Positions 50,988-64,000 are shown, counted from the first letter of the stretch. The stretch: 64,000 bases of DNA from an uncultured Actinomycetes bacterium (GCA_963731625.1 CAVSWH010000001.1:200570-264569), one strand, 5' to 3'. Notes: generated from the sequence alone by a model not told the origin. Numbers and translations are program-made.

Positions 50988-52037
50988 TTGCGCGCGTGGC
51001 GTGTCCACGACTTCGGTGAGCCGTCAGACGTCTTCCGGCTCGAGGAGGTCGAAGAGCCGTCGGCGACTGGTCTCGCACGCCTTGGGATGAGCCTTGGTGG
51101 GTGGGTCCAATTGGAAGAGGCGCCCTTTCCGGTGACCCCCGAGTGGGCCATCGTGGACATGCGGGCCGCCGCCCTGGCGCTGCCCGACGTGACGATGGCT
51201 CGAGGCACCTATCCAGTCCCGGTGCCCCGTCCCTACATCTCCGGTCAGGAGGGCGTCGGCGTCGTCCGCGAGGCCTCTGACACGCTCGCGCACCTCGTCG
51301 GATCGCGGGTCGTCGGGGTCTTCATCCAGCCGTGGGGCAGCCTGGCAGACACCGCCGTCGCCGTCGGACCGAGCATCATGCCGGCGCCGGCCGCACTCGA
51401 TGACATCGAGGCGGCAGCCTTCGTCATCCCCGCACACACGGCGTACCACGCGGTCATTCGGCGCGGGCAGGTCCAGGCAGGCGAGACCGTGCTCGTGACC
51501 GGAGCGGCCGGCGGGCTGGGATCGGCGTGCGTACAGCTCGCTGCTGCACAAGGCGCTCGTGTCATCGCCGTCGTCGGCAGCTCCGCGAAAGCGGAGCACT
51601 GCCGCCGGCTCGGCGCTGCGTACGCCATCGATCACTCAGCCGGAGATGTCCTCGATGGAATTAGGTCCGCGGTCGGGGATCAACCGCTCGACGTCATCAT
51701 CGATCCCGTCCAGGGCCCGACTGGCGGCCGGCTGCGACACCTTCTGGCTCCGGGCGGCCGGCACGTTCTCTGTGGGCACGCCGGTGGGCTCGAGCCCATC
51801 GACCCGCATTTCTATGTCGCAAACGTGACCCTCGTCGGGGCGACGCTCGGCGGCTATCCACCAGACGTGATGGCGGCGATGTTCGAAAGCGCCTCCGCCG
51901 ACCTGACGCGGATGCTCGCCGATGGGACGTTCCGGCCCACACCCTCTCAGGTGGTCGACTTCGACAACGTCCCGTCGGTTCTCACCGAGATGGCCGAGCG
52001 TCGGACCATCGGTCGGCCCGTGGTCAAACTCGCGTAA
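50988..52037 (+). CDS. Zinc-type alcohol dehydrogenase / NADPH:quinone oxidoreductase family
   Basis: The nucleotide fold is VTGAAGGLGSACVQLAAAQGARVIAVV. It has the MDR architecture. The start is a TTG. Confidence 0.85.
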   Translation: MRAWRVHDFGEPSDVFRLEEVEEPSATGLARLGMSLGGWVQLEEAPFPVTPEWAIVDMRAAALALPDVTMARGTYPVPVPRPYISGQEGVGVVREASDTLAHLVGSRVVGVFIQPWGSLADTAVAVGPSIMPAPAALDDIEAAAFVIPAHTAYHAVIRRGQVQAGETVLVTGAAGGLGSACVQLAAAQGARVIAVVGSSAKAEHCRRLGAAYAIDHSAGDVLDGIRSAVGDQPLDVIIDPVQGPTGGRLRHLLAPGGRHVLCGHAGGLEPIDPHFYVANVTLVGATLGGYPPDVMAAMFESASADLTRMLADGTFRPTPSQVVDFDNVPSVLTEMAERRTIGRPVVKLA

Positions 52038-52539
52038 CGGAGTTGGCTCGGAGAACGCGGCTCGACGGCTCCCCGAGCCGGGTGCACGCTGCCTCTGCCG
52101 TCGATGCGACGACTCTCTGACAGTCAGAGCAGCACAACCACGGACGCCAGAGGACGAGGGAGATCGGCGCGGGACGTGGACCTGCGGCTTCCCGCCCGTC
52201 GCAACGACCCGCCGGGGCCGCCCCCGACCTCGCCGTGACCTTGCGCACGCCAGGATCAGTCGCGTGTCCTGTCTGGCCGGCGAACATCGGGTGCTCGGGA
52301 ACCCCACTTCGAATGAGTTCAGCCATGACCACACCCACATCCGATCTCCCCGAGCTCGACCTTGGCGACCCAAATCGGGTCCCAGGACTTCGAACAGGCG
52401 TCGACCGATCAGTCGGTCGCGATCGCCGGTTTCGGAAGGCCACCGTCAGCGTCGCGAAAGAGCGCCGGGAAAGGCGGGACGGGCGTTCCTGGACATGACG
52501 TAGTACACATCGTGTGTTGGGGGAAGTGGGGGCCGCGCT

Positions 52540-53106
52540 TTGCTGGATGTTTCGACCGTCCGCGGCGCCAAGAATCACGGACAGAACAGGCCTGTGTGCT
52601 TAGAGAGGCATCCATGTTGCACACAAGACGAAGGACGATCCGAGTCGCTGGCATGGCTGGCCGTGCTCGTCATGACCGCTGGTTCCGCCGCGGCCGCGAA
52701 CCGCGGCACAGCCACCGCGCTGGCGCCTCAGAAGCCGCGCACGGTCCCGTACACCGCGACCGCTACCTGCGCGCAGATCAGCCAAACCGGGTCTGCACAC
52801 GTGATCGTCTGTGCCGGTACCAGCTCGATCGATGGAGACGGTGCGGCCGTGGCCACGTTCACGATCAACGGCACCAGCGGCACCGGCACCGCGATCGGAT
52901 ACTTCGCCGGTGGCGTTCGCAGGTCCAAGGAGACCTTCACCGTTGCAGCGGGTGCCAACGGCATGGTCGCGCTTACCGGAAGCGGCACCTGCACCGGGGG
53001 AACGGGCGTGTACAAGCACGCGAAATGCAGCTACACCCTCACCGGCACGACAAATCCTCAGACCAACGTGGGCCCCAGCATGGAAGTCGGCACGATCACC
53101 CGATGA
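52540..53106 (+). CDS. Secreted Gly/Thr-rich hypothetical protein. The N-terminus is probably frame-disrupted.
   Basis: The hydrophobic core and AxA site (LAWLAVLVMTAGSAAAAN) are in this frame. The only good start (ATG 52614, SD GAGAGG, basic MLHTRRRTIR) is in the neighbouring frame. The mature part has paired Cys and GT-rich beta-like repeats. Confidence 0.5.
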   Translation: MLDVSTVRGAKNHGQNRPVCLERHPCCTQDEGRSESLAWLAVLVMTAGSAAAANRGTATALAPQKPRTVPYTATATCAQISQTGSAHVIVCAGTSSIDGDGAAVATFTINGTSGTGTAIGYFAGGVRRSKETFTVAAGANGMVALTGSGTCTGGTGVYKHAKCSYTLTGTTNPQTNVGPSMEVGTITR

Positions 53107-53185
53107 CCCGAGGGTCACGCGCGCCGGGGACTCATCCCGTGGGTGGGAACCGGTCCCGCACCGCGCTCGCATAAGGCCGATGATG

Positions 53186-53236
53186 TGGAGCGGACGACGG
53201 ATTCGAACACCCGCCACTCTCACCTTGGCGAGGTGA
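53186..53236 (-). pseudogene. 3' fragment of a tRNA-Gly(GCC): anticodon arm, decayed T-arm, acceptor strand and CCA. It is not a functional tRNA.
   Basis: The minus-strand reading is TCACC-TCGCCAA-GGTGA (anticodon GCC, C at position 33), GAGTG, GCGGGTGTTCGAATCCGT, CGTCCGC, T, CCA. There is no matching 5' acceptor strand or D-arm upstream, and the T-stem has 2 mismatches. It shares its last 14-15 nt with the units at 56.4 kb. Confidence 0.7.
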
Positions 53237-53250
53237 TGAACGCTTCCGGT

Positions 53251-53327
53251 GGAGACCGCTGGAACCGCTGGAGTCCAGGTCAGCGGCTTGCGTTCTCCGC
53301 TGGAGACCGCGGGAACCGCTCCAGTCC
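53251..53327 (+). repeat. Two 26-nt direct repeats (3 mismatches) next to the tRNA fragment
   Basis: GGAGACCGCTGGAACCGCTGGAGTCC lies at 53251-53276 and GGAGACCGCGGGAACCGCTCCAGTCC at 53302-53327. Further on, AGTAGCAGG occurs twice (53338, 53350) and there is a hairpin AGCAGGA-TTTGT-TCCTGCT (53353-53371). Confidence 0.7.
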
Positions 53328-53548
53328 GCTGGATTCGAGTAGCAGGTTCAGTAGCAGGATTTGTTCCTGCTCAGGCCGCCTCGCCGCGCTCAACACAAGG
53401 CTTCCTACGGGCATCTCGGCGAGTCTCAAGCACAAGCGTGCTGGCGGCGGGCCACCAGGCCGTGCCTCCACCACCTTCTTCTCCCGCGCGCGACCGTCGT
53501 CCTACGATAAGACGCGTCGGTGGCTCGCCGACCAGGAACGAGGGGGCC

Positions 53549-54571
53549 GTGGTAGATGCTTCGGCGCCTTTTTGGGCGCCTGATCCGACGGGCCGCTTCA
53601 GCCAGCGGTACTGGAGCGGCTCGGCGTGGACCGAGTGGGTCGCGGGCCCCGGCGGAGGCGACGCCTCTCGCGACCCCTTGCGGCCCGACGATCCCCAGGT
53701 CCCACCCGGCACGGCAGCAAAGCCGCAAGGCGCCGAAGCGACACCGGCCCCGGCCGGTGCGCCCCAACCGCCGCGCCAAACCGATACGTCGGACCTCGTC
53801 GTGCCCGGCCTCGCGGACTACGCCGCGCGGGCGGGGTGGCAGCCGCTCGGACCGCAGCCGTTCCCGTCGCCGTTCGACCGCTCCGTGAGCGGCTTTTCAC
53901 TGCTCTTCGTCCACGAAGCCGGTACCGGCGGGGCCCAGAACCCGGTGTCGGGGACCAGCTACCACAGCGCCTACGGCGGCGACCTCGACGGGAGCGCGTT
54001 CACCGTCGCCAACGCGTTCACCGCCGGGTGGCGGGGCTCCCGGGTCTCGGCTGCGCAGTTCTGGTTCCCCGTGATGTGCGGCGTCGAGGTCACGCCCCGC
54101 CGCCACGCCCTGCCCCGGTTCGGGGGCTTCACGACCGGCGACGCAGCGTTCGACGACCAGTTCACCGTTGAGACCCGTGACAAGGAGCTGGCGCATCGAC
54201 TCCTCACACCGGCGATACGGTCGCTCTTGTCGCAACGGGACGACTGGGCGTTCTGGATGTTCGGCTACACGGTGCTCTGCGTGTGCGGTGAGCCCTTTGG
54301 CGCCGTCGACGACGTGGCGGATCGACTGCGCTTCCTCCAGTCGCTCGGCCGCGCTATCCCACCCGAGCTCGGATCGAGCGAGCCGGCACCGACACCGCAC
54401 CTGACCCTGCCCGACGGCACACCGATCGACCTCACGCATCCCGAGCAGCTCAAGGCCGCTGTCGAGCGGCTCACGCCCGACCAGCAGGCTCAACTGCTCC
54501 AGCAGTTCCAGCAGCTGGACCCGAAGCTGCGCGAGCAGCTGCTCGTCCAGTTCGTGCAGCACAAGCACTGA
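53549..54571 (+). CDS. DUF2510-type N-terminal motif protein (340 aa), function unknown
   Basis: GTG 53549 is preceded by GAGGGGG. The N-terminus is FWAPDPTGRFSQRYWSGSAWTEWV (the WxPDPxGxxxxRYWDGxxWT-type motif). A Pro-rich linker and a roughly 230-aa unknown domain follow. The tail is Gln-rich (QQAQLLQQFQQLDPKLREQLLVQFVQHKH). Confidence 0.65.
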   Translation: MVDASAPFWAPDPTGRFSQRYWSGSAWTEWVAGPGGGDASRDPLRPDDPQVPPGTAAKPQGAEATPAPAGAPQPPRQTDTSDLVVPGLADYAARAGWQPLGPQPFPSPFDRSVSGFSLLFVHEAGTGGAQNPVSGTSYHSAYGGDLDGSAFTVANAFTAGWRGSRVSAAQFWFPVMCGVEVTPRRHALPRFGGFTTGDAAFDDQFTVETRDKELAHRLLTPAIRSLLSQRDDWAFWMFGYTVLCVCGEPFGAVDDVADRLRFLQSLGRAIPPELGSSEPAPTPHLTLPDGTPIDLTHPEQLKAAVERLTPDQQAQLLQQFQQLDPKLREQLLVQFVQHKH

Positions 54572-54703
54572 CGGCGCCGCCGGACCGTGCCCTCGGGGCC
54601 CGGAGGCTCGAGCCGACCCGCTGCGCGCGCGACCTGCATGGCCCGCACTGTCCTGATCGACGACCATCTGCTGCTCGGCGTTCTCGGGCAAGAGCGCTGA
54701 GCA

Positions 54704-54725
54704 GATGTCTGAATATATAGACATC
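54704..54725. promoter_or_regulatory. Candidate HipB operator/promoter: inverted repeat around an AT-rich -10-like box
   Basis: GATGTCT (54704-54710), GAATATAT, AGACATC (54719-54725). Related half-sites ATATCGACAT (54752-54761) and ATATGCAGACATC (54788-54800) follow. The last one overlaps the hipB ATG. Confidence 0.5.
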
Positions 54726-54789
54726 ACTGCAGAATACCGCTGTGTCGGGAAATATCGACATGCGCGCCGTCTGGTGCTAAAGTCGGGAT

Positions 54790-55041
54790 ATGCAGACATC
54801 TCGCGACCGTGGCAAAGAGCAACCGTTCCGGGTCTATACGCCCGGGTCCCTCGGAGCTGCCATACGCCACTACCGGCGGGAGGCCGGCTTGTCCCAAGCG
54901 GAGGTGGCCGAACGGGCCGGTCTCCACCGGTCATACCTCTCCGACCTTGAGCAAGGAAAGGAGACCGAGCAGGTCCGCCGGATCCTGCGGATCCTCAAGC
55001 AGTTAGGCGTTCGCATGACGCTCGAGAAGGCGGATTGGTGA
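54790..55041 (+). CDS. hipB: HipB-like XRE-family antitoxin/repressor
   Basis: The HTH is IRHYRREAGLSQAEVAERAGLHRSYLSDLEQGK. It is 83 aa, and its stop overlaps the hipA start region (TGATG). Confidence 0.85.
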   Translation: MQTSRDRGKEQPFRVYTPGSLGAAIRHYRREAGLSQAEVAERAGLHRSYLSDLEQGKETEQVRRILRILKQLGVRMTLEKADW

Positions 55042-56267
55042 TGGCGGACGCACTTGCGGTCTGGCTGTACGGGAGCCACCTGGCGACTGTCGAGCAGGAA
55101 CGAGGCCGTGTCCGACTCACGTACACCGACGAAGCACTGCAGACGTTTCCACTCGGAACACCGCTTCTGTCGCTATCACTTCCGTTGAGAGAAGAGAGGT
55201 ACACGCAAGGAGCTGTTCTTCCATTCCTTGACGGATTGCTTCCGGAGGGAGCGCCTCGCCGCGCCGCCGCTGAGGACTTCAATGTTCCAGCTGCTGAAAC
55301 CTACGCCCTGATCCGCGAGCTCGGCCGTGAATGCGCGGGTGCCGTTGTCATCCAACCCGTCATGGAGCCACCACCCCCGCAGCCGAGGACGAGCACGGCT
55401 CGACGCCTCTCCGAGATAGAGATTGATGAACTCGTTCGCAATCTGCGCAGCGCACCCCTCGGGATCGCTCAGCGCGTGCGCATCTCCCTTGCAGGTGTGC
55501 AAGAGAAGCTCGTGCTCACCCGCATGCTCGATGGCTCGTGGGGTAGCCCGGTCGATGGCACACCGTCGACGCACATTCTCAAGCCCGAACTCGCCGAGTA
55601 CCCCAAGATCGTTGAAACCGAGGCGTTTTGCATGCGCTTTGCGACGCACCTCGGCTTGCGCGTTGCAGACGTCCAGACAACGACCATCGGTGATCGCCGC
55701 CTGCTCGTTGTTGAGCGGTACGACCGCGTCGTTCACGACGATGGCTCTGTCGATCGCGTCCATCAAGAGGACATGTGCCAAGCGCGGGGTATTCCGCCGG
55801 TAAAGAAGTACCAGGAGGACGGTGGCCCCTCATTGCGGACAATCGCCGAGGTTGTTCAAACCGCCGCCGAACCACAAGCTGTTGAGATGCTGCTTCGGAT
55901 GACGACGGCAAACGTCCTCGTCGGAAACGGCGACGCTCACGGCAAGAACTTCTCACTCCTCCACGAGAGGAGCGGCGGGCTTCGACTCACGCCTCTCTAT
56001 GACGTGGTGTCGACACTCCACTATGGCCAGGATCGCCTCGCCATGTACATCGACGACGTGCGCCGTACAAACCGAGTCACACGCGAACGATTGCTCAACG
56101 AGGCAAGGACGTGGGGGCTCTCCGCGCGACGAGCATCCGCGGTCATCGACGATCTGCTCGAACGAGCCCCCGCGGCCCTTGAATCCGCGGCAGAGGAAAC
56201 GCCCGAATTGCCAGTGGAGATCCCCGCTCTTGTGACCGCACAGCGGAAGCAGCTTTTCGGCTCGTAG
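55041..56267 (+). CDS. hipA: HipA-family serine/threonine kinase toxin
   Basis: The N-terminal coupling domain has LAVWLYGSHLATVEQ and LPFLDGLLPEG. The kinase core has SLAGVQEKLVL, and the catalytic loop is VGNGDAHGKNFSLL. Possible starts are ATG 55041, GTG 55038 or TTG 55035. Confidence 0.88.
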   Translation: MADALAVWLYGSHLATVEQERGRVRLTYTDEALQTFPLGTPLLSLSLPLREERYTQGAVLPFLDGLLPEGAPRRAAAEDFNVPAAETYALIRELGRECAGAVVIQPVMEPPPPQPRTSTARRLSEIEIDELVRNLRSAPLGIAQRVRISLAGVQEKLVLTRMLDGSWGSPVDGTPSTHILKPELAEYPKIVETEAFCMRFATHLGLRVADVQTTTIGDRRLLVVERYDRVVHDDGSVDRVHQEDMCQARGIPPVKKYQEDGGPSLRTIAEVVQTAAEPQAVEMLLRMTTANVLVGNGDAHGKNFSLLHERSGGLRLTPLYDVVSTLHYGQDRLAMYIDDVRRTNRVTRERLLNEARTWGLSARRASAVIDDLLERAPAALESAAEETPELPVEIPALVTAQRKQLFGS

Positions 56268-56336
56268 GGCGGCCGCCGTTGTCTACGCGGCGACGGCCGC
56301 GATCACCTCCGACGGACGCGCCCTGATGGTCTGGAG

Positions 56337-56580
56337 ACACGAAGGAACGGGGCCGGGGCGAAACCGCGCCTAACGCGAACACCCGGGCCCCGCGGGTTCG
56401 AGTCCCGTCGTCCGCTCCAAGTCGTTGCACACGAGGGAACGGGGCCGGGGCGAAACAGGGGGAAACCCGGACACCCGGCCTCAGCGGGGTTCGAGTCTCG
56501 TCGTCCGCTCCAAGTCGTTGCACACCCGGAGGGACAGGCGGGGCGAAACGGCGCGAGCGGCGGACACAGCGGGACGGGCA
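56337..56580 (+). repeat. 2.5 tandem ~92-93-bp units. Units 1 and 2 end in a tRNA T-arm/acceptor/CCA module and are a candidate structured ncRNA array or att scars.
   Basis: Unit starts (ACAC) are at 56337, 56429 and 56522. The tRNA-like 3' blocks are at 56392-56419 and about 56484-56512, with encoded CCA at 56417-56419 and 56510-56512. A 9-bp helix lies at 56349-56357/56382-56391 and at 56441-56449/56474-56482. The inner hairpins are at 56365-56377 and 56459-56468. Confidence 0.85.
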
Positions 56581-56765
56581 ACGGCGAATCAGATACTCGC
56601 CGACCTCGTCGCCAACGGCATCGTGCTCAGGGTCATCTTGGACGCAGTTCAACGCGGACGAGAGCGGCGCCAGTCAACGAACAGCGAACAGCAGGGCGCA
56701 GCCTGAACCGGCGAAGGCGGACATCCGGCTGGCCCGGGCTCGCGTGCTCTCAATGCCGAGTTCGC

Positions 56766-57323
56766 TTAGGCCTTTCGCAGCTCTCGGACTTCGAGGCTCG
56801 CGACGATCTCAACGATGCCATAGACGATCATCCCCACCCCGATGATCACACAGATGATCGACAGCGAAAGAGACGGGTAGACGAGGCAAAGGATGCCGAT
56901 GGTCGTCGCGATCAGGCCGAGGAGCACAATGCCCCAACTCACCTTGCCGTCGTTCGCGCTGAAGCCGTGAAACAACTGCGTCACGCCACCGATCGTCCAG
57001 AAGATGCCGATGATGAATCCGAGGACTGCGACGGTCGTGGTCGTGTGGTGGAGCAGAAGCAGTGCGATGAGGATGGCGAGTAATCCCGCGAGGATGAGCC
57101 CGGTGCGCTCACCCGTTGCGCCGATCGCCTGGATAAGCCGAACGACGCCGAGGATGAAGAGCCAGATGCCGAAGATCACTGCGATCGCGTGCACAGAGTT
57201 GCTCGGCTTGAACGTCAATACGATTCCAAAGCCGAGCGTGACAACTCCAAACAGCGCGAACAACCACCATGCTCGCCCGACTGCTCGAATGCTTGCCGCC
57301 GGGTCGTCAGTCATCATGGACAT
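56766..57323 (-). CDS. HdeD/DUF308-family membrane protein
   Basis: It has six helices with the repeated GxxxxxxG pattern and WWLFALFGVVTLGFGIVLTFKP. Codon usage is AT-richer than in the core genes. Confidence 0.75.
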   Translation of the reverse strand: MSMMTDDPAASIRAVGRAWWLFALFGVVTLGFGIVLTFKPSNSVHAIAVIFGIWLFILGVVRLIQAIGATGERTGLILAGLLAILIALLLLHHTTTTVAVLGFIIGIFWTIGGVTQLFHGFSANDGKVSWGIVLLGLIATTIGILCLVYPSLSLSIICVIIGVGMIVYGIVEIVASLEVRELRKA

Positions 57324-57407
57324 TCCGCCCTCTCCGATGGGGTCTTGCAGGTTCAGGTCGAACCTATGACCCCACAGGGTAGTTACTTTTCACCTCCACG
57401 GGGGTGA

Positions 57408-57794
57408 GTTGACTCCGATGAGCAGCGACGTCCACGCTCCGACCGGCAACTCGCCCGGGCCGCCGCCGCGATTGGCGAGTACGAGCAAGCCGAAGAGCGG
57501 TTCATGATCGTGCTCGACATCCACACTCAGCTTCAGGCGCCGTTTCGGATCGCGCTCACTCAGCTTGACCACGCCGACCTGTACCTTGCCCGCCGCGGCG
57601 ACGACGACCTCACCCGCGCGCGCCACCTCACAACCAGCGCGGTGGCAGCGGCGGCCGAATTCGGCTTCGCGGACTCACCAAACGAACGGCAACCGTCCTC
57701 GCCGACATCTGGCCCCGGGTCTTCTGCCTGCCGCCCGCGTTGTCCGCCGCGGCGGGACGGGCGCCACTGGCACCGGGGAGCTAGGCAGCTCTGA
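57408..57794 (+). pseudogene. Orphan C-terminal TPR-like remnant of a large (LAL/adenylate-cyclase-type) regulator
   Basis: The frame is open only from 57408. It reads ...LARAAAAIGEYEQAEERFMIVLDIHTQLQAPFRIALTQLDHADLYLARRGDDDLTRARHLTTSAVAAAAEFGF. It has no N-terminal domain, no SD and no plausible start. Confidence 0.4.
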
Positions 57795-57980
57795 CCCCGG
57801 AGCGCGTTCCTCGCGTGGGCGACTGGCTTCAAATGACACGCCGACAGGGCACAGGAGCATGAGCAGCCCCATCAGGGGCCGCGTAAGCGAGTCGATGGAA
57901 GCTCGTCGGATGGGCGGCGGTCCGCATCGTCGGGCCGCCGTTTTCGTGGTGACCCCCTACTGCTGGACCTTGGTGGGTAG

Positions 57981-58622
57981 TTATGAACGGTGGAACAGCA
58001 GCCGTCTGACGTCACGGAACGGAACAACCAGATACAGCGCGAGACCGAAGTACAACGCCACCGCCACGCCAGGCAGGAAGAGCCCGATGCCGATCGCCGT
58101 CACATAGCCGATGACGACGGGTAGAAGTTGTCGTCCTTCGCGTTGGAGCTCCGCGCCTTCTCCTTGCGGCTTGTAGAGATGCTCGCGTTGCGCATACGCA
58201 TCCAGGGCGACTCCCAGGACGCGGATCACCAAGAGGGTCAGCCCGTACATCGTGACGGCAACACGTTCGGCTCCGAAATGCTGCAGGGCGTCCGCGACGA
58301 GGCGAGTCGGGAACGGCAGGAACGCCACGACGAGCAGAACGAGCAGGTTCAGCCGTAGGAAGATCGGATCTGTCCGCTCCAGCCGGTCGGTCAATGCGCT
58401 GTGGGAGAGCCATCCCGCGCCGATCGTGAGGAAGCTGACGAGGTACGCGAGGTACGCGGGCCAAGCATGAAGGACCTGCTCGAGCGGTGTACCGGGCGGA
58501 TGCACCGCGATGTCGAGGACGAGCAGCGTGGCGGCGATGGAGAACACGCCGTCGCTGAACGCTTCCAGCCGACCCTTGCCGAGAGATCGCCGCGCCCCCG
58601 GTGTGCTTTCATCGGTGGACAA
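57981..58622 (-). CDS. TMEM175/DUF1211-family potassium channel-like membrane protein
   Basis: It has the signature RLEAFSDGVFSIAATLLVLDI and six helices. The start is proposed at TTG 58622, with GGAGG 7 nt upstream. The track ORF extends to 58736. Confidence 0.75.
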   Translation of the reverse strand: MSTDESTPGARRSLGKGRLEAFSDGVFSIAATLLVLDIAVHPPGTPLEQVLHAWPAYLAYLVSFLTIGAGWLSHSALTDRLERTDPIFLRLNLLVLLVVAFLPFPTRLVADALQHFGAERVAVTMYGLTLLVIRVLGVALDAYAQREHLYKPQGEGAELQREGRQLLPVVIGYVTAIGIGLFLPGVAVALYFGLALYLVVPFRDVRRLLFHRS

Positions 58623-58968
58623 CGGAGCGCCTCCATCGCGTCGAACGATAGGAGCGATGTTGCGGGACGCGAACGAGCCCTCGACCGAAAAGTAATTGGC
58701 AAGACCACCCGTGTCCACCGAGCGTGCTCGCGCCACGCTTGCCTTTCGGGCTTGGGCACAGCCACCGCGGGGATCTCGAGATCACCGTGCTGCACGGTGC
58801 GACGTCGAGGCCATCCACCAAGCGCTCGATCGGCCTCCCGGGCTCGTTGCATTGGTCATAGACGACGCACGCAAGGAACCCAGGGTGGACCTTTTCGTCG
58901 AACGTCACCGTGATCGTGTCGACCAACGAAGCCGCCGTTCGACCGATCGGTTCACGGCACTGCGGTGA

Positions 58969-59535
58969 TTACAGCGAGTTCTTCACGGCTTTGCACGTAG
59001 ACGAGTTCTGGAGTGCCTTCTGGAGTTCCCCGTTCGGCGTCAGGCCCTTGAGCGTGGTGGCCGCCGACTTTGTCTGACTGACACCTCTCTGGATGGTGCT
59101 GCCGATCTGGGCGAACGTCGCCGCGATATCGCCGGGGTTCGTCGGAGGTGGTGACAGCGACTGTTGGATGCTGTTGATGTCGCTGCCCAGCTGAGTCGAG
59201 AGGTTCTGGACGGCGCTCTGCGCCTTTGCGCCGTCCGACGTCGAAGGCTTGCCCAGTTTCTGCAGCGAATCGTTGAACTGGCTGAGAGCGGTGCTGAGCC
59301 CGGTCGTGGCTGTCTGGCTTGCCGCCGCCACCGAACCTGAGCCTTTGAGACTCGAAATGGTGGAGTTGACTGATTGGCCGAAAGTCTGGAGTGCGGAACA
59401 CATACCGTCGGCCCACTGCTGAGCGGATGTGCCCTGCGAACTCGCGCCGACCGGAGCAGCAATCCACGTGCACAGGGCGATACCGGCGATCGCAATGCCC
59501 GAAACCAACCGTCGCGTGCCCGCTAATCCCGTCAT
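58969..59535 (-). CDS. Secreted Ser/Thr/Gln-rich hypothetical protein
   Basis: ATG 59535 gives a signal peptide (MTGLAGTRRLVSGIAIAGIALCTWIAAPVGA-SSQG). The body is low-complexity and helical-looking, and codon usage is AT-richer. Confidence 0.6.
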   Translation of the reverse strand: MTGLAGTRRLVSGIAIAGIALCTWIAAPVGASSQGTSAQQWADGMCSALQTFGQSVNSTISSLKGSGSVAAASQTATTGLSTALSQFNDSLQKLGKPSTSDGAKAQSAVQNLSTQLGSDINSIQQSLSPPPTNPGDIAATFAQIGSTIQRGVSQTKSAATTLKGLTPNGELQKALQNSSTCKAVKNSL

Positions 59536-59650
59536 GCCCTCTCGATCCTTCCGTCGCTCAATCAACCTGGCCGAACCCAGCTTGGGTTTGGGTTTGCACC
59601 GCCCACCGAAGTGCTTCAGCACTGTCAGCGGTGTGCGGGTAGAACCACCG

Positions 59651-59887
59651 CTAGCGAGTTACGACAACCTCAACCTCGCGTGGCCGGGTAATGATGTAGG
59701 CGATCACACCGATGACGGGGACGAACACGATGAACAGTGTCCACATCGCCTTCGCGAAACCGCCGTGATCTCGACGCTCGAAGTTGTCGATGAACACCCT
59801 AATGACGATGATGATCCAAATGACCAAGACCGCGAACTCGAGCAGGCTCCAGAACACCCCGAGCAGGGGAAAGTCATACGCCAACAT
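59651..59887 (-). CDS. PLDc_N-domain small membrane protein, a paralogue of 45241..45561
   Basis: It has LLEFAVLVIWIIIVIRVFIDNFERRDHGGFAKAMWTLFIVFVPVIGVIAYIITRP. The start is ATG 59887. Confidence 0.75.
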   Translation of the reverse strand: MLAYDFPLLGVFWSLLEFAVLVIWIIIVIRVFIDNFERRDHGGFAKAMWTLFIVFVPVIGVIAYIITRPREVEVVVTR

Positions 59888-59972
59888 GGAACGCTCCAAA
59901 CTGTGCCGCCCGCCCGTCAAGCTCGGCGGTCACCTCGATGAACACCCGCGGGTGACACCGCGGCCAACTCTG

Positions 59973-59990
59973 TCTCTCTCTCTCTCTTCT
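59973..59990. repeat. (TC)n dinucleotide microsatellite
   Basis: tctctctctctctcttct lies about 85-100 nt upstream of the PLDc_N gene start (59887, minus strand). Confidence 0.8.
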
Positions 59991-60167
59991 AAAACACCCG
60001 CGCGACTCCTCGCGGAGGTTCGATCCTTGCAGGAAGTCAGCCGAAGCGACGCGTTGTTCTATGGCGAAACACGCTGCTAGCTGGGGAGCGCGTCGAGCTC
60101 GCCGACATTCGCGCACCGTACCGCGAGTGCCCCCGCCGGTCGATGAAAACGGGGGGGATCTATGCAA

Positions 60168-60187
60168 GTCACCCGGTCGCGGGTGAC
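60168..60187 (-). terminator. Hairpin downstream of the LuxR-family gene
   Basis: GTCACCCG-GTCG-CGGGTGAC is a perfect 8-bp stem. It is preceded on the mRNA by the palindrome GGCGCC-GCCCG-GGCGCC (60190-60206). A C-run and then TTTT follow on the minus strand. Confidence 0.5.
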
Positions 60188-60210
60188 ACGGCGCCGCCCG
60201 GGCGCCGAAG

Positions 60211-62805
60211 TCAGAAGAGGCCCAGGCGGCGTGCTTCGGTCACCGCTTCCATGCGAGACGAAACCTCAAGCTTACGGTAGATCCGCTTGACGTGTGTCTT
60301 GAGCGTGTTGTTCGAAACGAAGAGCTCCGCCGCGATCTCCTTGTACGTGAGTCGGGACGCGAGATATCGAACGACGGTGAGCTCGCGGCTGCTGAGTGGT
60401 CCCGAGGTGCTGCCGTTCGCGACCCGGAGGGTCGGATCGCGTTCGAGGCGATCGAGCACAGCCTGCTCGTATTTCTCGATGCGTCCTGACCGTAGAAGCA
60501 GAGTGACGCGCGGTCGGAGTTCGACCAGGTCGTCGGCGACGGCCACGACGAAGCCTTCGATCTTCGCGACAGCGAGCGCCTCCGCGAGCAACGGATCTGC
60601 GGCATCAGATCCCCGGAGGTGCGCGACCCGGGCGGAAAGCAGCGCTAAGTCGAGGCGCTCGCGCACTGTTGCCGGCGTGCATCGAGCGAGGGCGTCGTCG
60701 GCGCGGTCTAGCTCACTTCGGGCGATCTCGATCCGAGCCTGAAGCAGAGGCACTCGGTTTCCCGGCTGGAGGCTCTGCGCGCATCGGTTGGCGCGGTCCA
60801 GGTCGCCTATCTCGATTGAGATGCGACCTTCCAATGCGTGACAGAGGCTGAGGAGCGGACTGGTGGAGCCAGGCCGCAGGAACGCTCGCGCTCGCTCAAC
60901 GCCAGAGAGTGCCTCGCCTACTCGGCCATCGGCGAGCCAAACTCTCGAGAGCGACAGTTGGCTCACAAGCGCGAACGCGGGACGCACGTCCTCACTCATC
61001 GAGAGCGACTGCTCGAGCACGCGTTCCGCCGTAACGAGATCGCCGCGCTCGAACGCCACTCGCCCCAGCGTGCGAACCGCATCGACCATCGCCGGATGCG
61101 CGGCCATTCCTATTGATTCGGCACCCGTGAGCGCGTCTTCCGCGAGGTGCTCGGCCTCGGTGAGCAGACCTTCGACGCACGCAACCCAGGCGAGTGCGCC
61201 AGTCATTGCGACCTGCTGCAGGCTTGGTGCGGCGAGCGGATCCAAGGTTTGTTCGCATATCTCGCGTGCGCCGTTGAGATCCCCGAGCCACAGCCGAGTG
61301 CGCGCGACGAGGGTGGGCCCGTACTGAGCGATCTCGTCGTTGGGGAGGTCCTTCGGTCCGAGATAGTCGGTCAGCGCTCGTTCGACCTCGTCAGCTTCTC
61401 CGTACTGCACTCCGACGAGAGCGCGCGCGATCACGAGTCGGGCGCGGTCGGACTCGTCGAAGTCGCCGGCGCGGTTGTTCGCGCGGATGATCCACGGCGC
61501 CGCCTGGCCGGCCGGGGCACTCGCGGCCAACGCGAGCGCAAGGTTGGCGAGGCGACCGGGTTCGCCTGTTACGGCCTCCGTTCCCACCTTGGCAGCAAGG
61601 CGATGCAGCACGCGACCGTCGCCTTGGATGAAGGCGTCGACGAGGCCGCTTCGGAGCAAGTCGAATGCTTTTGCTTCCTCACCTGCCATCAAGAGGTGCC
61701 CGAACGCATTCTCGACGTCATCCCTATCGATGAAGAAGTCGGCGGCGCGTCGATGTAGGGCCTGCTCGCGGTCCGGATCGTCCGCGTGGAGTCGGTGCCG
61801 CACCAACTCTCCGAACAGATGGTGGTACCGGTATGTATCTCGGGCCAACTCGATGAGGAAGAGGTGCCGGTCGTCGACACGGCTGAGCAATGCGCCGGCG
61901 TCGCTGCGGTCGGTTACGGCCGCGCAACTCTCCGGGCTAAGTATGTCGAGGATCGAAGTCGCGAGCAGGAAGTCGAGGATCTCAGCGGGTTGGCGGTCGA
62001 GTACCTCCGTTCCGAGGAAGTCTGTGATGGAGCGAGGCGTTTTCGCGAACTCTGTAAGGAATAGATCGGGGACCGATTCGTCACGAAGGGAAACGGCCGC
62101 CATCTGGACACCGGCGGCCCAACCCTCAGTGCGGGCCGTGAGTAGCTCGACCTCGGTCTCGTTCAGCTCGATTCCGAACTCAAGCATGACGGCGGCAACT
62201 TCGGCTCGCGTGAGTCGGAGTTCGGCCTCGCGCACCTCGAGCAGCTGCCCATGCGCGCGAAGTCGGTGCAGCGCGAGTTGGGGCTCAGTTCGGCTGCCCA
62301 TGATCACACGACAGCTGGAAGGGAGGCGCTCGATGAACGTGGTCAAACTAGGTGCCGCAGCCGAGGCGAACTGGACGTCGTCGATCACGATCACGACAGG
62401 TTCACCGAGCGCCGCGAGGTCGTTCACGATCGCGATCGCGACATCGCCGAGCTCGGGCTCCGCCTCGCAGAGCAAGTCGATCGCGTCGAGCGGGCGGTCG
62501 GGCCACCGGCGAGCAAGCGCGGCGGTAAGCGCGGACCAGAAGGTTGCCGGATCGGCATCGCGCTCGTCGCATGAAAGCCAGATCGACGCAAGCTCGGGGC
62601 GATCGTGCAGCCAGGATCCGAGCACCACGCTCTTGCCTGTCCCGGGCGCGCCGACGACGACCGTCAGCGGCACTTGCGCACCTGCGTCGAGGGCCGTATG
62701 AAGGCGATGGCGCGGAACGTGCCAACTCGGAAGCTCGGGCGGCGAAAACTTCGTCGCGGCCAAGAGGCGCGGAGTCAGAATCCCGTTCCTTTGTTCGCAG
62801 GTCAC
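60211..62805 (-). CDS. LAL-type (MalT-like) LuxR-family transcriptional regulator with N-terminal AAA ATPase
   Basis: It has Walker A GAPGTGKS, a long TPR-like middle region, and the C-terminal HTH LSSRELTVVRYLASRLTYKEIAAELFVSNNTLKTHVKRIYRKLEV. Confidence 0.9.
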   Translation of the reverse strand: MTCEQRNGILTPRLLAATKFSPPELPSWHVPRHRLHTALDAGAQVPLTVVVGAPGTGKSVVLGSWLHDRPELASIWLSCDERDADPATFWSALTAALARRWPDRPLDAIDLLCEAEPELGDVAIAIVNDLAALGEPVVIVIDDVQFASAAAPSLTTFIERLPSSCRVIMGSRTEPQLALHRLRAHGQLLEVREAELRLTRAEVAAVMLEFGIELNETEVELLTARTEGWAAGVQMAAVSLRDESVPDLFLTEFAKTPRSITDFLGTEVLDRQPAEILDFLLATSILDILSPESCAAVTDRSDAGALLSRVDDRHLFLIELARDTYRYHHLFGELVRHRLHADDPDREQALHRRAADFFIDRDDVENAFGHLLMAGEEAKAFDLLRSGLVDAFIQGDGRVLHRLAAKVGTEAVTGEPGRLANLALALAASAPAGQAAPWIIRANNRAGDFDESDRARLVIARALVGVQYGEADEVERALTDYLGPKDLPNDEIAQYGPTLVARTRLWLGDLNGAREICEQTLDPLAAPSLQQVAMTGALAWVACVEGLLTEAEHLAEDALTGAESIGMAAHPAMVDAVRTLGRVAFERGDLVTAERVLEQSLSMSEDVRPAFALVSQLSLSRVWLADGRVGEALSGVERARAFLRPGSTSPLLSLCHALEGRISIEIGDLDRANRCAQSLQPGNRVPLLQARIEIARSELDRADDALARCTPATVRERLDLALLSARVAHLRGSDAADPLLAEALAVAKIEGFVVAVADDLVELRPRVTLLLRSGRIEKYEQAVLDRLERDPTLRVANGSTSGPLSSRELTVVRYLASRLTYKEIAAELFVSNNTLKTHVKRIYRKLEVSSRMEAVTEARRLGLF

Positions 62806-62807
62806 CC

Positions 62808-62838
62808 CCGATTGGGTGACAGCCGCTCACCCCATCGG
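62808..62838. promoter_or_regulatory. 12-bp inverted repeat (1 mismatch) abutting the LuxR-family start codon
   Basis: CCGATTGGGTGA (62808-62819), a 7-nt spacer, then TCACCCCATCGG (62827-62838). It begins 3 nt upstream of GTG 62805. Confidence 0.4.
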
Positions 62839-63060
62839 TCCGCATACTGCGAACGCTGCGGTTCAAGGCATCGCGGGAGAGCGTAGTCCCAGTCACAGAA
62901 TTCGGACCTCGGGAGTGCCGACCGAGAGTGACCAGGCGCGGGCACCGCGATCGCTCAGTTCCTCGTCTCCTCTACCACGGGAGCGGCGAAGCCCTCGCGG
63001 CCCCGACGATGTCAGCAAGAGGGACGCTGAACCCGAACAGGGCCGACAGGTAGGTGGGTG

Positions 63061-64000
63061 ATGAGCACCTCGGCGAGCAAGGCTGGGGCGGCGCTGGTCG
63101 CCTTGGCGACGGCGCAGTTCCTTATGGTGCTCGATCAGTCCGTGATGAATGTCTCGATCAGCCAGCTGGTCAAGGACTTCCACACCACGGTGACCACGAT
63201 CCAGGCCGTCATCACCCTCTACTGCCTGGTGATGGCCATGCTGATCCTCACCGGAGCCAAGATTGGCGACATCATCGGCCGCCGACGGGCGTTCGTCATC
63301 GGCTTGATCATCTACGCCTGCGGCTCGGCGTTGACCGCGGCGTCCCAGACGGTGCCCGTCCTCGCTCTTGGATGGTCGGTGCTCGAAGGCGTCGGGGCCG
63401 CGCTCGTCTTCCCCGCGCTCGCGGCGTTGATTGCCGGCAACTTTGAAGGAACCCGACGCAAGGCGGCCTACGCGGTGATCGGTGGCGTCGCGGGTGCGGG
63501 GATCGCGGTCGGTCCCATCGTGGGCGGCTGGGCGACGACCGCGCTCACGTGGCGGGTCGTGTTCGTCGGCGAGGTCTTCATCGCTGGCTTCATCCTGTTC
63601 ATGACCCGCAGGGTGGAAGACGCCCCCGGTCCCACTCCCACGCCGAAGCTCGACGTCGTTGGCTCGGTGCTCTCGGCCGCCGGTCTAGGACTGTTCGTGT
63701 TCGGCGTGCTCGAATCGAGTACCTGGGGATGGGTCAAACCCAAGAACTCGCCCATCACGATCTTCGGCTTCTCACTCACCCTCTTCGTCATCGCCGCCGG
63801 TTGCGTTGTGCTCTGGGGGTTTGTGAGATGGCAGGGCCACCGCGAGGCGACGAAGCGCGACCCACTCGTCCACCTCTCGCTGGCCCGGATCCCACCGGTC
63901 CGGTCCGGAGTCATTGGGCTCTTCAGCCAGAACCTGATCCTGATGGGCACCTTCTTCGTCGTCCCGCTCTATCTCCAACTGGTGCTCGGACTCGATGCCC
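63061..64000 (+). CDS. MFS transporter, DHA2 (EmrB/QacA-like). The 3' end lies outside the window.
   Basis: This gene is not in the ORF track because no stop occurs in the window. My own translation from ATG 63061 is MSTSASKAGAALVALATAQFLMVLDQSVMNVSISQLVKDF...GAKIGDIIGRRRAF...LEGVGAALVFPA..., open to base 64000. Confidence 0.85.
   Translation, partial: MSTSASKAGAALVALATAQFLMVLDQSVMNVSISQLVKDFHTTVTTIQAVITLYCLVMAMLILTGAKIGDIIGRRRAFVIGLIIYACGSALTAASQTVPVLALGWSVLEGVGAALVFPALAALIAGNFEGTRRKAAYAVIGGVAGAGIAVGPIVGGWATTALTWRVVFVGEVFIAGFILFMTRRVEDAPGPTPTPKLDVVGSVLSAAGLGLFVFGVLESSTWGWVKPKNSPITIFGFSLTLFVIAAGCVVLWGFVRWQGHREATKRDPLVHLSLARIPPVRSGVIGLFSQNLILMGTFFVVPLYLQLVLGLDA

Follow-up and report, generated by a model that had tools for sequence, protein, structure and literature searches.

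In pSAM2, which uses a tRNA-Pro gene, and in mycobacteriophage L5, which uses a tRNA-Gly gene, each arm of attP carries arm-type sites for the integrase (Int), which is encoded beside attP and possesses an arm-binding domain. Genomic islands in tRNA and tmRNA genes are mapped by Islander, which requires an integrase gene in the island as well as intact att sites; an insertion into the 3' part of a tRNA gene restores that gene with sequence of its own and leaves the former 3' end at the opposite border of the insert (PMC4383910). An anticodon-centered class of attP is ascribed to Williams 2002 (PMC100330, as cited in PMC4383910). Cis-mobilizable elements (CIMEs) have kept their att sites and lost their integration and transfer genes, and both CIMEs and their tandem accretion have been described for ICESt1-related elements and Streptomyces pathogenicity islands (PMC5704250). 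Here we analyze a locus in a stretch of 64,000 nt (the window) from an uncultured Actinomycetes bacterium (GCA_963731625.1, CAVSWH010000001.1:200570-264569), in which a displaced 3' half of tRNA-Gly(GCC) adjoins a block of short direct repeats.

We consider it quite likely that positions 53186–53238 and the next 120 nt form the tRNA-distal, attR-type junction (P arm, core, and displaced tRNA end) of a CIME-like island of 13.4 kb, whose other border is the intact tRNA-Gly(GCC) gene. The junction would be a copy of a module that is spreading among some Acidimicrobiia, here decayed and with its cognate integrase gone.

The tRNA Fragment and Its Intact Gene

The original prediction, made from the sequence of the window, had placed an inverted tRNA-Gly(GCC) 3' fragment at 53186–53236, with small indels in its T arm, and had read it, together with adjoining direct repeats, as the remnant of an att site. 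The fragment is there and is slightly longer: on the minus strand 53238–53186 reads CATCACC-TCGCCAA-GGTGA-GAGT-GGCGGGTGTTCGAATCCGTC-GTCCGC-T-CCA, matching nt 25–76 of the genuine tRNA at 89% identity over 54 alignment columns (BLAST E-value 2e-6 to 3e-6 within the 4-Mb genome). It differs by three substitutions and, in the T arm as foreseen, by a 2-nt insertion and a 1-nt deletion; in the anticodon loop U33 has become C (TTGCCAA to TCGCCAA). The 5' half is absent. No tRNA is called at the fragment by ARAGORN, run on the window and the whole assembly (4.0 Mb in 24 contigs, 94% complete; the window is C1:200570-264569), or by the Rfam tRNA model at E ≤ 1, consistent with a fragment that is not a gene.

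The genuine tRNA-Gly(GCC) lies on the minus strand 2.6 kb beyond the window end (C1 c[267187-267262], window-equivalent 66618–66693). It scores 71.8 bits with Rfam, is the only credible copy that ARAGORN finds in the assembly, and has the same 3' end as the fragment. A second GCC call by ARAGORN, a 95-nt match, is implausible as a tRNA. Gene and fragment lie on the same strand in direct orientation, the fragment 13.4 kb downstream in the RNA sense, as expected of DNA inserted into the 3' part of the tRNA gene. This is the geometry of a tDNA island, with an intact tRNA gene and its cognate 3' fragment on one replicon and the fragment on the 3' side of the gene. Inverted sites around a short overlap region are also present at the level of sequence, in the form of the 5-bp anticodon stem flanking the 7-nt loop.

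We envisage a circular element that would carry the module in the order repeats, anticodon stem-loop, tRNA 3' half, and that would recombine with the chromosomal tRNA gene inside the anticodon loop. The element-borne 3' half would rebuild the gene, and the resident 3' half would be displaced to the far end, beside the repeats, at 53186–53238. The repeats would putatively be bound by the recombinase, or else by an accessory factor through which the complex is assembled. Later the site would have decayed and the enzyme would have gone, leaving a fixed fossil at the border of an integrase-less island.

Anatomy of the Module

The module consists of the tRNA 3' half with its anticodon stem-loop, followed by two clusters of CCGCTGGAR repeats (units of 9–10 nt) and two GGAGTAGCAG repeats (Table 1). 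Two 26-nt direct repeats that had been noticed at 53251–53276 and 53302–53327 are real and extend to 32 nt (53245–53276 and 53296–53327; 28 of 32 positions identical, 51 nt apart), each 32-mer being made of three CCGCTGGAR units of 9–10 nt. Six units with at most one mismatch, all on one strand, fall within 81 nt, and nowhere else in the genome do they lie so densely; the whole genome would be expected to hold about 0.005 windows with at least six units, and the single-strand arrangement brings in another factor of 1/32. A 9-nt direct repeat, likewise predicted, is AGTAGCAGG at 53338–53346 and 53350–53358. In total the arm holds seven CCGCTGGAR units in two clusters plus the two GGAGTAGCAG repeats, all distinct from core sequence. 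When a dispersed repeat family was sought, the repeats proved unique within this genome.

The gene-free gap, put at about 440 bp in the original prediction, measures 442 nt (53107–53548), and the next gene starts with GTG at 53549 behind GAGGGGG. A predicted 7-bp hairpin does exist at the end of the repeats, but as a part of the site it falls away: it is missing from the other copies of the module, because the module ends at 53359. A second cluster of the motif (54462–54577) is of mixed strands, lies inside a coding region, and was put down to chance.

Two of the units vary in a particular way. At the second unit of cluster 1 and the third of cluster 2 (53316–53324 in the window, for instance), CTGGAG and CTCCAG alternate between copies in the module alignment; a change of GG to CC reverse-complements the hexamer, as though the core of the unit had switched orientation.

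Table 1. Coordinates of the junction, the island features, and the conservation of module segments; positions are counted from the first letter of the window
Feature	Position	Strand	Basis or remark	Mean pairwise identity (36 copies)
Whole ~175-nt module (fragment plus P-arm repeats), degenerate copy	53185–53359	+	Model R1, 159 bits	
Displaced tRNA-Gly(GCC) 3' part, nt 25–76 (anticodon stem to CCA), decayed	53186–53238 (C1 253755–253807)	−	Alignment to genuine gene	0.89
Anticodon stem-loop TCACC-TCGCCAA-GGTGA, presumed core; 5-bp inverted repeats round 7-nt loop	53220–53236	−	Sequence level	
5-nt linker beside core				0.46
Repeat cluster 1: three tandem CCGCTGGAR units at 53246 (CCGGTGGAG, mutated), 53256, 53265	53246–53274	+	Pairwise identity	0.90
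Poorly conserved spacer between clusters (21-nt spacer of the alignment)	53275–53296	+	Pairwise identity; ~1 bit/position	0.59
Repeat cluster 2: units at 53297, 53307 (CCGCGGGAA, mutated), 53316 (CCGCTCCAG variant), 53326	53297–53334	+	Repeat and footprint analysis	0.89
Two 10-nt (G)AGTAGCAGG repeats, 12-nt period, consensus GGAGTAGCAG	53337–53358	+	Module ends sharply after	0.87
7-bp hairpin AGCAGGA-TTTGT-TCCTGCT	53353–53371	+	Local to window copy, absent from other copies	
Island cargo, on to ~66617 outside window	53360–64000		Pfam scans, tRNA calls, GC	
DUF2510-like gene	53549–54571	+	Pfam	
hipB	54790–55041	+	Pfam	
hipA	55035–56267	+	Pfam	
Two inverted tRNA-Gly T-arm/acceptor copies, 56391–56419 (97% identity) and 56487–56512 (92%)	56391–56512	+	BLAST	
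LuxR/MalT-type regulator, 864 aa	60211–62805	−	Pfam	
MFS transporter	63058–64545	+	Pfam	

Recurrence at the Same tRNA

In a search of window positions 51000–53600 against ten relatives, only 53178–53358 matched at several places: in G001 on C211 (87% identity, together with the left flank) and on C251, twice in G002, and three times in G007, these three genomes being congeners. The G002 sites, 4 kb and 6 kb apart, are downstream of its tRNA-Gly. Aligned copies agree from the tRNA end to ...GGAGTAGCAG and are entirely different beyond both ends. The module is also found in G023, which belongs to another family; there the DNA differs on both sides, the repeat units are kept, and the spacer is unrelated. 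In each of the copies, identity with the genuine tRNA breaks off at nt 25, which rules out that homology of the arm reaches on into the tRNA 5' half (a candidate raised by model matches to position 103).

An exact-pattern scan, which required cluster 2 and one GAGTAGCA, returned 11 genome contigs and 31 metagenome contigs. The genome contigs are labelled as metagenome-assembled genomes (MAGs) of Acidimicrobiia or other Actinomycetota, save one labelled Acidobacteriaceae. A sequence model (R1) built from five copies then yielded 36 distinct full-length copies. Within the order the distribution is patchy (13 of 264 genomes, 6 of 75 genera, three families). On contigs that include a tRNA-Gly(GCC), the distance from that gene downstream to the module is 2.4–11 kb and the fragment has the direct orientation; two or three modules in a row are common. 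The prediction of an att-site remnant, with a displaced tRNA 3' end and repeats, is supported, and the block recurs at the same tRNA in other genomes. Other families of elements use this tRNA as well (G004, G030, G025, G021, G016). Their arms are unrelated, and the arm is thus specific to the module family; their tRNA identity ends at the anticodon loop or a few bases past it, which supports strand exchange in the loop.

Some of these contigs deserve separate mention. At L046:1450-1491 a tRNA 3' half cut exactly in the anticodon loop (...CACCTTGG) lies directly against the next full module, a junction consistent with breakage and joining in the loop. The G002 array (C1 91835-135125) apparently has more than two units, with a further tRNA-Gly fragment at 91835–91883 and, beyond the outer module, a second broken copy of a 318-aa-type integrase (112652–113594). 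The first gene past the repeat arm points away from the module in five of six Pfam-supported cases (G000, G007, L056, L063, G023, L050), which is not significant (one-sided p ~0.11).

Footprint and Decay

Across the 36 copies the repeats are far better kept than the spacers (Table 1), and conservation falls steeply beyond the last repeat; the repeats are thus sites rather than debris. Conserved short direct repeats that alternate with free spacers have the look of a protein-binding footprint. A neutral scar whose adjoining repeats came from local slippage or duplication, with no function as sites, is a most improbable origin for such a pattern. The window copy is unique in its genome and degenerate, and its two 32-nt repeats could stem from a 51-nt tandem duplication, but 36 distinct copies from three families have the repeats in this arrangement, and the cluster is the densest in the genome. 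The divergent spacers also argue against a recent descent of all copies from one duplication, and conservation of the repeats far above the spacers contradicts a scar outright.

Nor does the tRNA part make it at all probable that the module encodes an RNA, whether a D-arm-less molecule resembling tRNA-Gly or a regulatory RNA. No consensus structure is predicted from the module alignment, which shows no covariation either; copies with an altered 5' strand have no compensating change; and the conserved sequence continues for 100 nt past any tRNA-like fold, as direct repeats of 9–10 nt. The idea draws on undecayed copies that score 30–40 bits with the Rfam tRNA model, whose gathering score is 29 (L056:5357-5416, L063:4132-4191, L068:392-451, L042:4682-4741). 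ARAGORN calls those of L056, L063, and L068, and not that of L042, as tRNA-Gly genes of 72–73 nt, and the first repeat unit gives GCGGAAG, which pairs at six of seven positions with the acceptor 3' strand to make a D-arm-less pseudo-tRNA. The window copy, however, is called by neither ARAGORN nor Rfam.

Decay was scored by counting deviations at the 117 highly conserved columns of the module alignment. The window copy deviates at seven of them, the most among copies that keep the tRNA part, and is decaying; its changes affect the tRNA part (anticodon loop and T arm), the clusters (the first unit in cluster 1 and two of those in cluster 2), and each of the two terminal repeats. Ten copies deviate at none of the 117.

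The Recombinase and the Role of the Repeats

Scans for integrases used Pfam on the island open reading frames (ORFs) and PF00589 across the genome. No tyrosine integrase is found in the window or the island (C1 253–267 kb in the genome scan), in agreement with the original prediction that none is left. Elsewhere, enzymes do accompany the module. In G125 a 6.2-kb segment between tRNA-Gly and module holds an intact tyrosine integrase of 318 aa. The tRNA-proximal unit of G002 has a frameshifted integrase with 83% protein identity to it, and the two hosts belong to different families. A 55% homologue of this lineage lies directly after a tRNA-Arg. Scans for the motifs H-D-L-R-H and H-x-L-R-H around modules revealed no integrase; H-x-L-R-H scans are blind to the G125 lineage, because its motif is HDLRRT. 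A scan for HDLRRT gave matches only in the G002 and G125 elements. Within the genus the HDLRRT lineage is confined to G002, where both copies are broken, and it is absent from the 94%-complete assembly studied here. A conserved gene between integrase and arm, considered for G125 and G002, does not exist; similarity stops just before the integrase stop codon.

G023 has a different integrase, which is located outside a 2.5-kb cassette and directly against the fragment of a full module. Its domains are SAM-like, core-binding, and catalytic, the SAM-like domain lying at residue 100 behind an N-terminal extension of ~65–100 residues (depending on the start), and its link to the module is positional only. 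A search with this enzyme led to 35 Acidimicrobiia and Actinomycetota loci, none with a module; the matches are mostly to tRNA-Gly, one query peptide being translated tRNA. In the present assembly its best homologue adjoins tRNA-Met, and a weaker one is ~400 bp from tRNA-Thr(tgt). With the nearest homologues at other tRNAs and the HDLRRT lineage absent, the assembly has no evident cognate enzyme. As a separate observation, the G023 integrase frame (L074:2945-4390, G023 C91) stays open through the tRNA fragment and the whole arm and stops at the TAG of the conserved GGAGTAGC, so that the att site may encode the C-terminal tail of the enzyme.

Several findings weigh against our preferred reading of an attR-type junction left by an element that lost its integrase. 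The ~60 ORFs around modules in 12 loci include mostly no integrase by Pfam. The recurring 318-aa integrase has two domains, with its core-binding domain starting at residue 14; the 13 residues before it leave no room for arm binding in the manner of lambda Int. No conserved P' arm is found among 16 tRNA-proximal cassette ends, in which column identity is 37% and not one column is invariant. The relatives examined did not yield a demonstrable empty site, and of the ten relatives searched G001 alone has the left flank (52380–53185). The exact-pattern search itself imposed part of the conservation seen in cluster 2 and in one GAGTAGCA; cluster 1, the tRNA part, and the BLAST-found copies lay outside the search pattern, and their conservation is unforced. 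Finally, binding and recombination at the module are predictions from sequence comparison.

Since the tRNA-proximal cassette ends share nothing, only one arm is conserved, and this together with the missing arm-binding domain suggests that the repeats may bind an accessory protein rather than the integrase. The prediction of arm-type binding sites therefore survives in one respect, the clustered and conserved repeats beside the core, and is undercut in another by the single arm and by the recurring integrase without an arm domain. That the repeats are arm sites of the integrase is a tenable possibility, somewhat short of an even chance; that they are sites of another DNA-binding partner is more doubtful, and other roles take up the remaining probability. 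The sharp footprint points to putative protein-binding repeats.

The genes within module-bounded segments that have no integrase include a TetR regulator with a glycosyltransferase, a methyltransferase with AbiEi/AbiEii, a set of GH15, aldolase, and MMPL genes with an AraC/DJ-1 regulator, SnoaL, and MFS. As most such segments have no integrase, a model in which integrase-bearing elements lost the enzyme is not the only possible one. The module could instead be the sole recombination site of small integrase-less cassettes. An integrase acting in trans or from the far end of the array would add these at tRNA-Gly(GCC), stack them, and change their order, an arrangement somewhat like an integron but anchored at a tRNA. 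The window copy would then be one cassette end, or the dead end of an array, possibly usable if the enzyme arrives. About ten module-bounded cassettes of 0.7–6.5 kb carry accessory genes only. The strongest point is that ten modules on different contigs have no deviation at the 117 columns while their spacers differ; undecayed modules with drifting spacers and no integrase beside them would imply continuing selection on the sites. The cassettes have one conserved end only, modules within one array are 66–94% identical, less than their best matches elsewhere, and a gene of the metallo-β-lactamase (MBL) fold occupies different array positions and orientations. The position of the G023 integrase, outside the cassette and abutting the fragment, also fits. 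In G132 an undecayed module coexists with no PF00589 matches in the assembly other than two of full length that read as Xer-like (high score, 312–357 aa) and one short fragment; G132 is only 75% complete, however, and most contigs are short.

We nevertheless think mobilization in trans unlikely. A conserved trans-acting integrase was not found in the scans, and the module alignment has no attC-like hairpin or consensus structure. Two module-bounded elements own an integrase, as ordinary elements with decayed derivatives would (CIME accretion, PMC5704250), and the window copy is clearly decaying. Were it true, this would be a gene-capture system of new design, built on a tRNA half and tandem protein-binding repeats, and a tRNA-targeting module with a defined site.

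The repeats might also be read as subterminal transposase-binding sites at the end of a tRNA-targeting DDE transposon or insertion sequence (IS). IS481-like DDE genes stop ~45 nt short of a CCA end, that of a genuine tRNA-Gly in L039 and that of a module fragment in L063, with the DNA abutting it, and an IS3-type gene adjoins a truncated module in G001. Yet the fragment separates these insertion sequences from the repeats, their own terminal repeats are different, and at the other end of no segment is there an inverted copy of the repeat block. In addition, a 52-nt target duplication that rebuilds the tRNA is a signature of site-specific recombination, not of transposition (PMC4383910). A transposon end is thus scarcely probable. 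The IS481-like genes themselves (L039:2289-3851 and L063:2932-4127; HTH_32, rve, and rve_3), on metagenome/MAG contigs, share 73% protein identity. The DNA end of the element bears a pair of CGATGTCTCGCGACA repeats and comes to within 4 nt of the CCA end, and the element may be an insertion sequence that targets the tRNA-Gly end.

The Island, Its Cargo, and Its Flanks

Under the preferred reading of a decayed attR-type junction, the window from 53.2 kb to 64 kb, and on to 66.6 kb, would be an acquired, now immobile island with hipBA and regulators. In addition to the genes in Table 1 it carries a DUF308 gene, a TMEM175-like gene, and, past the window and adjoining the tRNA, a 347-aa MBL-fold gene. 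GC content is 61%–66% and, like third-position GC, is below that of the flanking genes. No conjugation, replication, or relaxase genes or remnants were seen by Pfam among the island ORFs.

The island reading would also account for tRNA debris in the window. Positions 56340–56560 hold two and a half tandem units of ~93 nt, each a tRNA-Gly T-arm/acceptor end followed by CACGAGGGAACGGGGCCGGGGCGAAAC, and the CACGAGGGAACGGGGCCGGGGCGAAAC stretch also follows the genuine tRNA (82%–88% over ~50 nt). These units are inverted copies of the tRNA-proximal junction, debris inside the island.

Copies of the MBL-fold gene recur beside modules or tRNA in several genomes, at differing array positions and in both orientations (L001:14474-15517, which is window-equivalent 65474–66517; L028:8513-9556; L024:10597-11655; L053:4219-5262). 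The G007 copy is 88% identical and the G002 copy is frameshifted.

The right flank and the tRNA are kept in all 30 relatives searched, and the DNA downstream of the tRNA differs in each; in G008 that region maps to other contigs of the present genome. On the left, the gene next to the fragment (52362–53174) has no Pfam match and is shared, among ten relatives, by G001 only, so the true chromosomal flank of the array may be further left than 53186. The relative nearest to this genome, G001, has 94% identity to it in the right flank and shares left flank, module, tRNA, and the 60 nt after the tRNA. Directly after the repeat block it has different DNA, and its contigs end before the rest of the insert. 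The same ends with different DNA after the repeats imply that the module-side cargo has turned over between close relatives.

Comparison with Known Systems

The locus alone is ordinary. The wider module family is noteworthy: the module is well conserved and, in related Acidimicrobiia, forms the end of many small cassettes that sit at this tRNA and have no integrase. The module is now defined as a precise marker of ~175 nt, with a model that detects it, and it delimits accessory-gene cassettes at tRNA-Gly(GCC) in uncultured Acidimicrobiia.

Like the islands mapped by Islander, the present one has an intact tRNA gene at one end and a directly oriented 3' fragment of it at the other, identical from the anticodon arm through the 3' end apart from the decay; the tRNA is a hot spot for several element families, and tandem arrays occur. 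Unlike them, the island has no integrase and its fragment is decayed, and Islander would therefore filter it out. In terms of tDNA islands, then, it has the geometry and has neither the integrase nor intact att sites on both sides, the fragment bearing three substitutions and two indels and the module seven deviations.

The attP sites of pSAM2 and L5 resemble the module in identity from the anticodon loop to the tRNA 3' end and in clustered short direct repeats in the arm beside the core, which in pSAM2 and L5 are protein-binding sites and here putatively so; they differ in that conservation here is limited to a single arm and that the recurring integrase lacks a domain for arm binding. A complex att site of the lambda type is matched likewise in its core and arm repeats, not in having sites on both arms. 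The island is not an integron, in which intI adjoins attI and the cassettes end in attC sites folded into imperfect hairpins: no integrase stands at the head of the array (the tRNA), and the module alignment gives no consensus structure. Nor is it an integrative and conjugative element of the pSAM2 type, as int-xis next to attP, replication genes, and FtsK-like transfer genes are absent among its ORFs. Horizontally acquired islands in a genus of another phylum are alike in integrating site-specifically at one small-RNA gene, by a mechanism described as common in that genus; the target gene differs.

The island also resembles CIMEs. It is flanked by attL and attR, the attR side decayed, and contains no integration or transfer genes, and the arrays of relatives pair integrase-less units with an integrase-bearing one (G002, G023, G125). 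Unlike CIMEs, no unit seen has conjugation or replication genes, and the units are numerous, measure 0.7–13 kb, and have one conserved end only; the likeness is one of resemblance and does not imply descent from a conjugative or mobilizable element. With this understood, the island fits the definition of a CIME as given in PMC5704250.

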